Shown: in pieces, positions 8,483 through 14,741 of the stretch | Numbering within the stretch: the first letter of the stretch is position 1 | Layout of the letters: each line of letters begins with the position of its first letter | NCBI RefSeq assembly: GCF_001677475.2 | Contig: NZ_CP015229.1 | DNA from: Escherichia coli | GTDB lineage: Bacteria; Pseudomonadota; Gammaproteobacteria; Enterobacterales; Enterobacteriaceae | Reading direction: 5' to 3' (one strand) | Length of the DNA: 64,000 bases | Position numbers and translations under genes: made by a program | Notes under the pieces: model-generated | Database searches by the model: none | The model's input: the letters and a program-made list of their open reading frames with translations, nothing else | What the model was told of the DNA's origin: nothing

Positions 8483-11400
8483 ATGGACGTCAGTCGCAGA
8501 CAATTTTTTAAAATCTGCGCGGGCGGTATGGCTGGAACAACGGTAGCGGCATTGGGCTTTGCCCCGAAGCAAGCACTGGCTCAGGCGCGAAACTACAAAT
8601 TATTACGCGCTAAAGAGATCCGTAACACCTGCACATACTGTTCCGTAGGTTGCGGGCTATTGATGTATAGCCTGGGTGATGGCGCGAAAAACGCCAGAGA
8701 AGCGATTTATCACATTGAAGGTGACCCGGATCATCCGGTAAGCCGTGGTGCGCTGTGCCCAAAAGGGGCAGGTTTGCTGGATTACGTCAACAGCGAAAAC
8801 CGTCTGCGCTACCCGGAATATCGTGCGCCAGGTTCTGACAAATGGCAGCGCATTAGCTGGGAAGAAGCATTCTCCCGTATTGCGAAGCTGATGAAAGCTG
8901 ACCGTGACGCTAACTTTATTGAAAAGAACGAGCAGGGCGTAACGGTAAACCGTTGGCTTTCTACCGGTATGCTGTGTGCTTCCGGTGCCAGCAACGAAAC
9001 CGGGATGCTGACCCAGAAATTTGCCCGCTCCCTCGGGATGCTGGCGGTAGACAACCAGGCGCGCGTCTGACACGGACCAACGGTAGCAAGTCTTGCTCCA
9101 ACATTTGGTCGCGGTGCGATGACCAACCACTGGGTGGATATCAAAAACGCTAATGTCGTAATGGTGATGGGCGGTAACGCTGCTGAAGCGCATCCCGTCG
9201 GTTTCCGCTGGGCGATGGAAGCGAAAAACAACAACGATGCAACCTTGATCGTTGTCGATCCCCGTTTTACGCGTACCGCTTCTGTGGCGGATATTTACGC
9301 ACCTATTCGTTCCGGTACGGACATTACGTTCCTGTCTGGCGTTTTGCGCTACCTGATCGAAAACAACAAAATCAACGCCGAATACGTTAAGCATTACACC
9401 AACGCCAGCCTGCTGGTGCGTGATGATTTTACTTTCGAAGACGGCCTGTTCAGCGGTTATGACGCTGAAAAACGCCAGTACGATAAGTCGTCCTGGAACT
9501 ATCAGTTCGATGAAAACGGCTATGCGAAACGCGATGACACGCTGACTCATCCGCGCTGTGTGTGGAACCTGCTGAAAGCGCACGTTTCCCGCTACACGCC
9601 AGACGTCGTTGAAAACATCTGCGGTACGCCAAAAGCCGACTTCCTGAAAGTGTGTGAAGTGCTGGCCTCCACCAGCGCACCGGATCGCACAACCACCTTC
9701 CTGTACGCGCTGGGCTGGACGCAGCACACCGTGGGTGCGCAGAACATCCGTACTATGGCGATGATCCAGTTACTGCTCGGTAACATGGGTATGGCCGGTG
9801 GTGGCGTGAACGCATTGCGTGGTCACTCCAATATTCAGGGCCTGACTGACTTAGGCCTGCTCTCTACCAGCCTGCCAGGTTATCTGACGCTGCCGTCAGA
9901 AAAACAGGTTGATTTGCAGTCGTATCTGGAAGCGAACACGCCGAAAGCGACGTTGGCTGATCAGGTGAACTACTGGAGCAACTATCCGAAGTTTTTCGTT
10001 AGCCTGATGAAATCTTTCTACGGCGATGCCGCGCAGAAAGAGAATAACTGGGGTTACGACTGGCTGCCGAAGTGGGACCAGACCTACGACGTCATCAAGT
10101 ATTTCAACATGATGGACGAAGGCAAAGTCACCGGTTATTTCTGCCAGGGCTTTAACCCGGTTGCGTCCTTCCCGGACAAAAACAAAGTGGTGAGCTGCCT
10201 GAGCAAGCTGAAGTACATGGTGGTTATCGATCCGCTGGTGACTGAAACCTCTACCTTCTGGCAGAACCACGGCGAGTCGAACGATGTCGATCCTGCGTCT
10301 ATTCAGACTGAAGTATTCCGTCTGCCTTCGACCTGCTTTGCTGAAGAAGATGGTTCTATCGCTAACTCCGGTCGCTGGTTGCAGTGGCACTGGAAAGGTC
10401 AGGATGCGCCGGGCGAAGCGCGTAACGACGGCGAAATTCTGGCGGGTATCTACCATCATCTGCGCGAGCTGTACCACGCCGAAGGTGGTAAAGGCGTAGA
10501 ACCGCTGATGAAGATGAGCTGGAACTACAAGCAGCCGCACGAACCGCAGTCTGACGAAGTGGCGAAAGAGAATAACGGCTATGCGCTGGAAGATCTCTAT
10601 GATGCTAATGGCGTGCTGATTGCGAAGAAAGGTCAGTTGCTGAGTAGCTTTGCGCATCTGCGTGATGACGGTACAACCGCATCGTCTTGCTGGATCTACA
10701 CCGGTAGCTGGACAGAGCAGGGCAACCAGATGGCTAACCGCGATAACTCCGACCCATCCGGTCTGGGGAATACGCTGGGATGGGCCTGGGCGTGGCCGCT
10801 CAACCGTCGCGTACTCTATAACCGTGCTTCGGCGGATATCAACGGTAAACCGTGGGATCCGAAACGGATGCTGATCCAGTGGAATGGCAGCAAGTGGACG
10901 GGTAACGATATTCCGGACTTCGGCAATGCCGCACCAGGTACGCTAACCGGGCCGTTTATCATGCAACCGGAAGGGATGGGACGCCTGTTTGCCATCAACA
11001 AAATGGCGGAAGGTCCGTTCCCGGAACACTACGAGCCAATTGAAACGCCGCTGGGCACTAACCCGCTGCATCCGAACGTGGTGTCTAACCCGGTGGTTCG
11101 TCTGTATGAACAAGACGCGCTGCGGATGGGTAAAAAAGAGCAGTTCCCGTATGTGGGTACGACCTATCGTCTGACCGAGCACTTCCACACCTGGACCAAG
11201 CACGCATTGCTCAACGCAATCGCCCAGCCGGAACAGTTTGTGGAGATCAGCGAAACGCTGGCGGCGGCGAAAGGCATTGCCAATGGTGACCGTGTCACTG
11301 TCTCCAGCAAGCGTGGCTTTATCCGCGCGGTGGCTGTGGTAACGCGCCGTCTGAAACCGCTGAATGTAAACGGTCAGCAGGTTGAAACGGTGGGTATTCC

Positions 11401-11530
11401 AATCCACTGGGGCTTTGAGGGTGTCGCGCGTAAAGGTTATATCGCTAACACTCTGACGCCAAATGTCGGTGATGCAAACTCGCAAACGCCGGAATATAAA
11501 GCGTTCTTAGTAAACATCGAGAAGGCGTAA
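8483..11530 (+). CDS. fdnG: formate dehydrogenase-N alpha subunit (selenoprotein, Tat signal); in-frame UGA selenocysteine codon at 9068..9070
   Basis: ORF-track entries 8483..9070 and 9119..11530 are in the same frame, separated only by a TGA. The junction reads ...LAVDNQARV-U-HGPTVASLAPTFGRGAMTNHW..., the FdnG selenocysteine context. N-terminal RRQFFK twin-arginine motif. Merged length 1015 aa. Confidence 0.93.
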
Positions 11531-12427: not shown

Positions 12428-13073
12428 GTCGAAAATGATTGTGCGCACCAAATTTATTGATCGCGCCTGTCACTGGACCGTGGTGATTTGCTTCTTCCTG
12501 GTGGCGCTGTCCGGGATTTCGTTCTTCTTCCCGACGCTGCAATGGCTGACGCAAACCTTCGGTACGCCGCAGATGGGACGCATTTTGCACCCGTTCTTCG
12601 GCATTGCGATTTTCGTCGCGCTGATGTTTATGTTTGTGCGTTTTGTGCATCACAACATCCCGGATAAGAAAGATATTCCGTGGCTGTTGAACATTGTCGA
12701 AGTATTAAAAGGCAATGAGCACAAAGTGGCGGATGTTGGTAAGTACAACGCCGGGCAAAAGATGATGTTCTGGTCGATCATGAGCATGATTTTCGTGCTG
12801 CTGGTGACCGGGGTGATTATCTGGCGTCCGTACTTTGCGCAGTACTTCCCGATGCAGGTTGTTCGCTACAGCCTGCTGATCCACGCGGCTGCCGGTATCA
12901 TCCTGATCCACGCCATCCTGATCCATATGTATATGGCATTTTGGGTGAAAGGATCGATTAAAGGGATGATCGAAGGGAAGGTGAGCCGTCGCTGGGCGAA
13001 GAAACACCATCCGCGCTGGTATCGTGAAATCGAGAAGGCAGAAGCGAAAAAAGAGAGTGAAGAAGGGATATAA
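12420..13073 (+). CDS. fdnI: formate dehydrogenase-N gamma subunit (cytochrome b556)
   Basis: ORF 12378..13073 trimmed to ATG 12420 ([19 protein letters not shown]...), 217 aa. Start overlaps the fdnH stop by 8 nt. Four-helix membrane profile with conserved His residues. Confidence 0.9.
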
Positions 13074-13093
13074 TCTCTTTTGAACTTTAAGCT

Positions 13094-13124
13094 GAAAATG
13101 GCGCTGTAAAAGGCGTCATTTTCA
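13094..13124 (+). terminator. terminator-like hairpin after fdnI
   Basis: aaaatggcgc / gcgtcatttt arms (one G-U pair) around a tgtaaaag loop, about 20 bp after the fdnI stop, followed by a T-rich run. Confidence 0.45.
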
Positions 13125-13127
13125 TAT

Positions 13128-13250
13128 TGTAGACAACGTAGGCTTTGTTCATGCCGGATGCGGCGTGAACGCCTTATCCGGCCTACAAACCCTTCAAATC
13201 CAATAGATTGCAGTGAACTTGTAGACCTGATAAGCGTAGCGCATCAGGCA
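13128..13250. repeat. REP/BIME-type palindromic repeat cluster
   Basis: gccggatgcggcgtgaacgccttatccggcctaca (13153-13187) and tgtagacctgataagcgtagcgcatcaggca (13220-13250) are canonical E. coli REP palindromic units in opposite orientation, lying between convergent fdnI and yddM. Confidence 0.75.
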
Positions 13251-13301
13251 ATGTTGCGTTTGTCATCAGTTTCAAATGGCTCTTTATAAGGTGCCATTTT
13301 T

Positions 13302-13586
13302 TTATTGCGTAACCTGACGGCGTAATCGCGACACATCCACCGTTTTTTCAGCCTCTGCCAGACTCCAGGCGTTTTGCAGATTCAGCCACATTTGCGGCGA
13401 ACTGCCGATCACCACGGAAAGTTTAATTGCCATTTCTGGCGTCAAAGCTGCTTTTCCGGTCAGCAATCGGCTTGCCGTTGAGGGAGCAATTTCCATTGCT
13501 CTGGCAAACTCGCGCAGGCTGACATTAAGTTCGTCCAGTGATTCCTGAATAATGCCCCCCGGACGGGGATGATTGGCCATTTTCAT
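13302..13586 (-). CDS. yddM: XRE/HigA-like helix-turn-helix DNA-binding protein (antitoxin-like)
   Basis: ORF 13302..13664 trimmed to ATG 13586 ([57 protein letters not shown]...), 94 aa; HTH_XRE pattern. Confidence 0.8.
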
Positions 13587-13730
13587 CAGTGTCTTTACTC
13601 TCAGTAGTGTTCCTTCACTGGGAACACCATCATTGTTGTTCCTTCTTGCGCAACAATAATCCATTTAGCCATTTCATGTTGGAGAGAGTGCGATGCTGCG
13701 ACCCGATCATGGCAGTCGCAGCAAAGCCTC

Positions 13731-14741
13731 TTAGCGGCGGAAATCAATCACCATACGGCCACGGATTTTGCCTTCTTCCATCTCGGTAAAGATGGTGTTG
13801 ATGTCCGCTAACGGACGCAGGGCGACTTTCGGCACCACTTTACCTTCGGCGGCAAACTGGAAGGCTTCAGTTAAATCCTGGCGCGTGCCGACCAGCGAAC
13901 CGACCACTTCAATACCATCCAGCACAAGGCGTGGGATATCCAGGCTCATAGACTCCGGCGGCAGACCGACTGCCACAACACGCCCGCCTGCACGGACAGC
14001 ATCAACTGCCGAGTTAAACGCAGCTTTAGCTACCGCTGTCACCACCGCAGCGTGAGCGCCACCGGTTTTTTCCTGCACAATTTTGGCGGCGTCTTCAGTG
14101 CGTGAGTTAATCGCTAAATCAGCGCCCATTTCGGTTGCCAGTTTTAACTGCTCATCGTTGACATCAATGGCGATCACTTTGGCGTTAAAGACATTCTTCG
14201 CGTATTGCAGGGCGAGGTTACCCAGACCGCCAAGACCGTAGATAGCAATCCACTGCCCTGGACGAATTTTTGACAGCTTAACGGCTTTGTAGGTGGTGAC
14301 CCCCGCACAGGTAATGCTGCTGGCCGCCGCCGAGTCCAGACCATCTGGCACTTTTACCGCGTAATCGGCGACCACGATGCACTCTTCCGCCATCCCGCCA
14401 TCAACGCTGTATCCGGCATTTTTAACTGAACGGCAGAGCGTTTCGTTACCACTGTTACAGTATTCGCAATGACCGCATCCTTCGTAAAACCACGCCACGC
14501 TGGCACGATCGCCTGGTTTTAATGAGGTGACACCTGGGCCAACTTCTGCCACCACACCGATGCCTTCATGGCCCAGAATTACGCCGGTTTTGTCACCAAA
14601 ATCGCCATTCTTAACATGAAGATCGGTATGACATACACCACAACACTCCATTTTCAGCAGGGCTTCGCCATGTTTCAGTGAGCGCAGTGTTTTATCCGTA
14701 ACGTCAACATGATGATCCTTCGTAACAACTGCAGCCTTCAT
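13731..14741 (-). CDS. adhP: zinc-dependent alcohol dehydrogenase, propanol-preferring
   Basis: ORF trimmed to ATG 14741 ([14 protein letters not shown]...), 336 aa. AGGAGG RBS immediately upstream. Zn-ADH motifs GHEGIGVV and CGHCEYC. Confidence 0.93.

Follow-up and report, generated by a model that had tools for sequence, protein, structure and literature searches.

What does an antitoxin gene do when there is no toxin gene beside it? The question is raised by yddM in a 64-kb stretch of Escherichia coli DNA (here, the window), for which an earlier note, made from the letters alone, had left two readings standing: an orphan antitoxin acting as a regulator, or what is left of a toxin-antitoxin pair that has decayed. 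Each of the two proves right, and they come to the same thing, with the partner gene found at this very position in 1331 of 5,426 complete E. coli genomes. We consider it very probable that the yddM locus is the remnant of a chromosomal higBA operon, from which higB has been deleted and in which YddM has been kept together with its own promoter. The orphan state as such is already known from annotation, structure and published strain comparison; the loss of this pair's toxin from K-12 and HS, which keep only the antitoxin, has been in print since 2020 (PMC7232551). What we add is incremental: operator architecture, population counts, polarity from outgroups, and micro-variants of the locus.

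The yddM gene and its upstream gap

In the window, fdnG, fdnH and fdnI lie in that order on the plus strand, followed by yddM, adhP and maeA on the minus strand (Table 1). Over 3 kb, none of the 5,415 matching complete E. coli records is more than 98.9% identical to the window, whose lineage is therefore absent from that complete-genome collection. The fdnG frame (8483-11530), which begins with a Tat signal (MDVSRRQFF), is split in the list of open reading frames by an in-frame TGA at about 9068-9070 (...DNQARV*HGPTV...), the known selenocysteine codon of formate dehydrogenase-N.

Profile searches uphold the initial description of YddM as a helix-turn-helix (HTH_XRE) protein of the type paired with HigB, and place it in the HigA family of antitoxins. 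The whole protein scores 91.3 bits against NCBIfam TIGR02607, 'HigA family addiction module antitoxin', well above the curated equivalog cut-off of 47.7 and over positions 1-80 of the 81 in the model, and residues 14-65 match Pfam HTH_3 at 39 bits; the N-terminal XRE/Cro-C1 helix-turn-helix fold expected of HigA proteins, which have about 95-105 residues, is likewise found in the 94 residues of YddM. The YddM of the window is identical at 92 of 94 residues to the 'antitoxin HigA' of PDB entries 2ICP and 2ICT, the source organism of which is E. coli CFT073 (PMC6987408). The 94-residue 2ICP protein is in turn identical to the common E. coli YddM (WP_000781370.1), from which the window protein departs by two private replacements, D11G and L91Q. 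Other matches in the PDB include HigA of Rts1 (4MCX_A, 68 bits), GraA (6F8S, 45 bits) and the Pseudomonas aeruginosa protein PaHigA (6JPI, 36 bits), and YbaQ (2EBY) is also a detectable homologue.

The gap between adhP and yddM spans 13587-13730. Its 144 bp had been judged to leave no room for a toxin; the length is confirmed, and none of the open reading frames in the gap matches a family in Pfam and NCBIfam profile searches. The PF05015 gene that stands immediately upstream of the antitoxin in a complete HigBA module is missing from the window, and tblastn with the cognate toxin returned chance matches only from the entire 64 kb (best E = 0.31), such that the toxin frame whose discovery in the region would, by the earlier note, have spoken against its reading is absent from the window. 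Relaxing tblastn down to E = 100 left no recognisable HigB peptide in the gap, and an Rfam search of 12900-14000 at a permissive threshold found nothing between yddM and adhP, its only matches being sub-threshold, REP-derived ones downstream of fdnI. The further assertion that the gap holds 'only' a hairpin and an in-frame leader was half right: both exist, but a predicted promoter and operator block at 13607-13656 is also there.

Table 1. Features of the adhP-yddM region, in coordinates of the window.
Feature	Position	Strand	Basis or remark
yddM coding sequence	13302-13586	minus	94 aa, starts MKMANHP; XRE helix-turn-helix, HigA-family antitoxin
In-frame upstream extension of the yddM frame	13587-13664	minus	26 codons; judged non-coding
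Weak Shine-Dalgarno-like GAGAG	13598-13602	minus	11 nt upstream of the yddM ATG; read from sequence
Operator O1, proximal (predicted)	13607-13627	minus	perfect palindrome GTGTTCC-N7-GGAACAC around the predicted transcription start
-10 hexamer GATGGT (predicted)	13626-13631	minus	position between the operators in all orthologous promoters; inference
Operator O2, distal (predicted)	13636-13656	minus	imperfect palindrome TTGTTGC-N7-GGAACAA; overlaps the predicted -35
-35 hexamer TTGCGC (predicted)	13648-13653	minus	inside O2
Stem-loop right after the adhP stop, putative stem of the adhP intrinsic terminator	13694-13723	minus	inverted repeat and folding
adhP, alcohol dehydrogenase	13731-14741	minus	upstream neighbour; stop codon 13731-13733 bounds the gap; annotated in homologous records

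The toxin gene in other genomes

A megablast of positions 13200-13900 against the 5,426 complete E. coli genomes separated two classes of locus, one co-linear with the window and the other carrying, between adhP and yddM, an additional gene annotated as 'type II toxin-antitoxin system RelE/ParE family toxin'. Strain F11 has it as an open reading frame for 92 aa, with a stop codon that overlaps the yddM ATG. Its product scores 63 bits against PF05015 (HigB-like_toxin) and 112 bits against Proteus vulgaris HigB (4MCT_B), a ribosome-dependent endoribonuclease that has been crystallised, and is 56.5% identical to the higB product of Rts1-type plasmids; the histidine of an LHPL motif and a C-terminal DYH, residues with a catalytic role in HigB, are aligned in the comparison with 4MCT_B. 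The toxin DNA is present as one copy in each of the 1331 genomes, 1330 of these copies being chromosomal, and in every row inspected its annotation adjoins or overlaps yddM. The toxin-less upstream segment (13587-13692) is present in 4032 of the 5426. A more sensitive blastn across the same genomes added 24 plasmid-borne relatives and, at the DNA level, no chromosomal paralogue in toxin-less genomes. Orthologous loci, where remnants of higB had been thought worth seeking, hold a PF05015 gene directly upstream of yddM in F11 and the other toxin-bearing E. coli, and in outgroups.

Two of the toxin-bearing strains have been described before. HigA of CFT073, known from 2ICP and 2ICT, is encoded by the same gene at the same locus as yddM, as is HigA-2 of the adherent-invasive strain NRG857c, where Bustamante and Vidal (2020) catalogued the pair as TA20, ParE-2/HigA-2, with genes of 279 and 285 nt (PMC7232551). 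CFT073 and NRG857c keep the 279-bp toxin gene, whereas the window and K-12 are without it. Other orphan HigA-type genes, in which the toxin was lost and the antitoxin kept, have been reported, namely ybaQ of K-12 and the higA at fadH-rlmG in CFT073 and NRG857c (PMC7232551), although these are other paralogues at other loci.

The direction of change was assessed by comparing YddM with one genome per species (GTDB), which gave 41 loci, followed by tblastn with the toxin, AdhP and FdnI. A toxin gene lies directly upstream of the YddM orthologue in E. albertii, in the representatives of three other Escherichia species and in about twelve Citrobacter species, as well as in Buttiauxella, Cedecea, Enterobacter, Pluralibacter, Chimaeribacter and Erwinia; it ends 2-3 nt before the antitoxin start or overlaps it. 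The pair stands beside fdnI in Escherichia, in Citrobacter and in three further genomes (Enterobacteriaceae bacterium 89, Pluralibacter and one Enterobacter). Where an outgroup species possesses a YddM orthologue, the toxin nearly always stands at the same position; it was lost in the lineage of the window rather than gained elsewhere, the toxin-bearing state thus being ancestral and the deletion in the window derived. One contig in the survey, 214 bp long and labelled Clostridium sp. CMCC3677 (L040), codes for residues 1-36 of YddM at 97% identity; stray E. coli DNA in that assembly is almost certainly its source.

Decay that strikes the toxin first is not confined to the K-12-type deletion. 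Among evenly spaced toxin rows, about 40% (an estimate, not a count) measure 278 rather than 279 nt; the shorter form carries a 1-nt deletion, and is flagged 'frameshifted' by PGAP in ST131. In ST131 (L002 1812-2089) the deletion shifts the higB frame at about codon 33 and leaves yddM intact, an inactivation that is independent of the K-12-type deletion. The toxin gene of E. coli strain A3 has lost 9 nt (three codons). Beyond the species, the toxin has suffered an internal deletion in Citrobacter sp. FP75 and frameshifts in C. portucalensis and Xenorhabdus lircayensis, and in X. khoisanae and Chimaeribacter californicus no more than its C-terminal stub is left.

Predicted operators, promoter and terminator

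The block at 13607-13656 contains two palindromes of 7-N7-7 layout which, at the level of sequence, overlap the putative operon promoter. O1 is 100% complementary (inverted repeat I5); O2 was recognised from a direct repeat with 29-bp spacing (D1) and from inverted repeats I1/I4, and is conserved across genera. The centres of the two are 29 bp apart and they share the form TGTTSC-N7-GSAACA. On the yddM strand the window reads TT-GTTGC-GCAAGAA-GGAAC-AACAATGATGGT-GTTCC-CAGTGAA-GGAAC. The composite pattern GGAAC-N12-GTTCC-N7-GGAAC has a single mismatch-free match in the window, at 13609-13642, against 0.01 expected by chance, and a second match with one mismatch overlaps it on the other strand, inside the same block. 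When toxin-bearing alleles are aligned, the 50 bp adjoining yddM prove homologous to sequence ahead of the higB gene instead of to its end. In 24 species-level loci the sequence leading into higB is laid out in the same way, with four pentamers conserved, spacers variable and the O1 half-sites at least 90% conserved. Eight toxin-less alleles were aligned. Across seven of these, all nine variable positions fall among the 26 spacer positions and none among the 20 half-site positions (p = 0.003), a count that leaves out two rearrangements, an inversion of O2 and a 29-bp deletion. Together these findings suggest that O1 and O2 are likely to be the operators of YddM.

Two hexamers are predicted to be the -10 and -35 of the higBA promoter, a TTGCGY lying 16 nt upstream of the candidate -10. 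The latter position reads GATAGT in K-12 and F11, TATACT or TATGAT in Chimaeribacter and Erwinia, and GATGGT in the window, which lacks an A that K-12 has (recorded as position 2). A consensus scan of 13200-13900 called no sigma-70 promoter. Genomic SELEX has mapped binding of sigma-70 RNA polymerase to the yddM-adhP interval (PMC3946193). The sole 'terminator' called by the scanner within 13200-13900 was O1 on the plus strand, which we judged to be a false positive of the pattern.

Two classes of toxin-less allele depart from this arrangement. The C11 class comprises 1056 genomes in the 80-90% identity band, the seven rows sampled all standing at 85.8%. In C11 (L051 580-600, equivalent to 13636-13656 of the window), O2 is the exact reverse complement of its K-12 counterpart, which corresponds to an inversion of roughly 11-17 bp within the palindrome and converts the predicted -35 from TTGCGT to TTCCTT; a template-switch mutation is its probable origin. 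The second class numbers about 183 genomes with query coverage below 80%, two sampled rows of which were alike. Its example, RIVM_C036569 (L053; equivalent to about 13609-13637 of the window), has a 29-bp deletion between two GAAGGAAC repeats. The deletion equals one operator repeat in length and removes the predicted -10 together with one operator, such that promoter function would be dispensable in at least some lineages. A third arrangement, in O157:H7 TR01 (L007 799-949), is a 151-bp adhP-yddM spacer of K-12-type length and mosaic sequence, in which 74 nt match toxin-bearing alleles and the next 29 nt match K-12, before the final 48 nt of higB; either genuine recombination or an artefact of assembly or polishing would account for it, and it is the sole such allele among the rows inspected.

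The position of the deletion junction depends on the allele that is aligned, as global alignment with long-gap penalties places the gap differently in the K-12 allele and in that of the window: the residual sequence of about 22 nt next to the yddM ATG may come from the 5' end of higB or from its 3' end. An origin in the 3' end, which would keep the ribosome-binding site of yddM, is slightly favoured. By comparison with F11, the GAGAG upstream of the start codon may be what is left of a GAGGA that toxin-bearing alleles have within the 3' end of higB.

The hairpin at the far end of the gap belongs, in our reading, to adhP. It had been reported at 13693-13720 and is real, albeit with those coordinates about 2 nt off; the arms TGCTGCGAC (13694-13702) and GTCGCAGCA (13715-13723) form 9 bp with 100% complementarity, and fold with their flanks at -25.5 kcal/mol (z = -3.6). 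The stem is common to toxin-less and toxin-bearing classes, and a T-tract, CTGTTTTGCG, comes next in E. albertii and in those E. coli that have the toxin. Citrobacter genomes with an adjacent adhP have another GC-rich stem in the same place, with the same TGTTTTGCG tail. Because the stem has been swapped in Citrobacter while the tail stays, the hairpin is best regarded as the stem of the adhP terminator. The suggestion in the earlier note that this palindrome is bound by YddM is accordingly withdrawn: it tracks adhP and not higBA, and the Citrobacter stem differs. The T-tract is missing from all toxin-less alleles, the window included (13694-13730 compared with L001 2300-2355); in the window the stem is stable, is not followed by a T-tract, and received no call from the terminator scanner. 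Given that the T-tract was lost with the deletion, adhP transcription may run on into yddM in toxin-less strains. The sites worth testing for binding of YddM are the GGAAC/GTTCC palindromes, not the adhP hairpin.

From these elements we propose that the ancestral order was adhP, its terminator, a promoter with two operators, higB, higA (now yddM) and then, on the opposite strand, fdnI. A deletion would have taken essentially the whole 279-bp higB along with some 50 bp of the spacer before it, in which the T-tract of the adhP terminator lay, thereby leaving no more than about 20 bp between the yddM start codon and the higBA promoter with its two operators. The retained promoter would still drive production of YddM, a dimeric XRE-type helix-turn-helix protein, which would bind the two TGTTSC-N7-GSAACA operators flanking the -10 and repress its own transcription. 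With no toxin to neutralise, it would persist as a small DNA-binding regulator that occupies other chromosomal sites too, and would keep a latent capacity to neutralise a HigB of this type. YddM is thus probably a minor DNA-binding regulator; we infer autorepression from the placing of the operators, and retained antitoxin activity from the annotation of an identical YddM in both toxin-bearing and toxin-less strains. Three features of the window itself count against this explanation, namely its GATGGT -10, the weak Shine-Dalgarno sequence 11 nt from the ATG, and the D11G and L91Q replacements.

Related systems share parts of this arrangement. HigB-HigA of Rts1 from Proteus vulgaris, the founding member, has the same reversed, toxin-first order and a fully folded XRE-HTH antitoxin, and its HigB is 56% identical to the toxin of E. 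coli strains retaining higB; the Rts1 promoter also carries two operators, as predicted for that of yddM. The Rts1 system is, however, plasmid-borne and complete, with another operator sequence, whereas the yddM locus is chromosomal and without a toxin. HigA of Pseudomonas (PA4674) and GraA of P. putida are homologues that bind palindromes in their own promoters, but these palindromes differ (TTAAC GTTAA, with two dimers on one compact site), and the toxin partners are present. P. aeruginosa HigA represses the unrelated gene mvfR besides its own operon (PMC6987408), a precedent for HigA as a general regulator. In the work of Gao et al. (2018), tagged YddM in K-12, binding DNA in vivo, yielded ChIP-exo peaks and a MEME motif and is listed as a validated transcription factor, and the motifs of six transcription factors analysed, YddM among them, are described as palindromic as a group (PMC6237786). 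Genetic interactions of YddM with stress regulators (PMC9283627) and new regulatory connections upon perturbation (bioRxiv 10.64898/2025.12.20.695731) have also been described in later screens, and a yddM knockout, uncomplemented, was hypersusceptible to epetraborole (PMC12457515). Literature searches for 'b1477' returned only noise, and most matches to 'yddM' concerned an unrelated gene of Bacillus subtilis.

Constraint on YddM and alternative readings

The common YddM sequence, WP_000781370.1, is identical in K-12, O157, F11, ST131, several isolates from wild animals, and E. albertii. Between the toxin-less K-12 and E. albertii, yddM has a dN of 0 and a dS of 0.22; between K-12 and C11, which are both toxin-less and share the same junction, dN is again 0 at a dS of 0.06, where about 13 replacements would be expected under neutrality (Poisson P about 3e-6). 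A comparison directed at relaxed selection gave replacement-to-silent ratios of 4:9 in toxin-less and 4:33 in toxin-bearing alleles, a difference that is not significant in these small samples (p = 0.18). In all alleles inspected the yddM reading frame is intact and annotated as a full gene. The YddM protein and the operator half-sites are under purifying selection.

A bolder proposal, which we hold only tentatively and think somewhat doubtful, is that YddM is actively kept in toxin-free E. coli for a job of its own, as a regulator of stress genes, as an 'anti-addiction' factor against HigB, or as both. In the anti-addiction role YddM would disarm HigB toxins brought in by plasmids or acquired from toxin-bearing strains through recombination. 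If true, the polymorphism across the species, with the toxin intact, frameshifted or deleted, the operator inverted and the promoter deleted, would constitute a natural series for the domestication of an antitoxin; the inverted operator, the 29-bp promoter deletion and the frameshifted toxin are in any case natural variants available in E. coli for work on YddM. The locus is a clean textbook case of toxin-antitoxin decay, in which loss of the toxin comes first while the constraint on antitoxin and operators continues. Beyond annotation hygiene its significance is small, as the gene is already correctly named by current pipelines.

The constraint on YddM bears most directly on the alternative that yddM is a functionless relic on its way out, which survives since the loss of the toxin is recent and the antitoxin cannot go first. 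The recurrent toxin-first decay seen in ST131, A3, FP75, C. portucalensis, Xenorhabdus and Chimaeribacter californicus does show an eroding module, and the promoter deletion in about 183 genomes, together with the weakened -10 and two private amino acid changes of the window, fits a gene being lost. A relic is nonetheless hard to reconcile with a dN of zero, both within the toxin-less pair and out to E. albertii, with half-sites that stay invariant as spacers vary, or with an intact frame in each allele inspected; moreover, the ChIP-exo peaks reported in PMC6237786 came from a chromosomally tagged copy, which shows that the protein is made in K-12. We therefore regard this alternative as weakened by dN/dS and half-site conservation and as unlikely overall, less so for the window genome with its weaker -10 and two private substitutions.

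The remnant of a higBA operon, with YddM retained, stays our preferred reading. Under another alternative YddM would be no true orphan, its toxin partner being supplied in trans from a different locus of the same genome. Cross-talk among homologous type II modules is a topic in the literature, and about 99 Escherichia plasmids carry HigB homologues of less than 60% identity. Against such pairing, the 64-kb window has no HigB-like sequence, and the toxin DNA occurs in at most one chromosomal copy per genome and only in 1330 of 5426, to which the sensitive blastn adds no more than the 24 plasmid matches; we rate it very unlikely.

Similarly improbable, and to a greater degree, is a true product of 120 residues. 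The minus-strand frame recorded in the list of open reading frames runs over 13302-13664, the annotated yddM being its final 94 codons, and an ATG at 13662-13664 would add an N-terminal extension of 26 residues, encoded by the in-frame leader to which the earlier note had correctly drawn attention. No stop codon interrupts it in the alleles of the window, K-12, FHI_NMBU_11 and C11. The extension would, however, overlap the predicted -35, -10 and both operators, its ATG has no preceding Shine-Dalgarno sequence, and the 29-bp deletion allele throws the leader out of frame and leaves yddM intact, with a YddM identical to the common sequence; because of this overlap and this frameshift, coding by the 26 codons seems very unlikely. 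In addition, the MKMANHP start overlaps the toxin stop in toxin-bearing genomes, and the crystallised protein has 94 residues.

Almost no credence can be given to the converse history, in which a stand-alone regulator was ancestral and certain E. coli lineages gained the toxin by insertion upstream: the two allele classes do differ beyond a clean deletion, with promoter regions about 70-75% alike as against about 97% identity in yddM, but all outgroups with the full locus carry the toxin in the same position with the same stop/start overlap, the operator block upstream of higB in those genomes is the block that abuts yddM here, and toxin identities of 98-99% between E. coli and E. albertii, versus 81-90% between either and Citrobacter, do not suggest recent import from Citrobacter.

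On its other side, yddM is separated from fdnI by a spacer built of REP-type palindromic units (13130-13260 of the window), the sub-threshold Rfam matches there being naRNA4 (13147-13183) and ES036 (13187-13228). The length of this spacer varies among strains, being about 180 bp longer in K-12, and in some strains it contains an IS200/IS605 tnpA.
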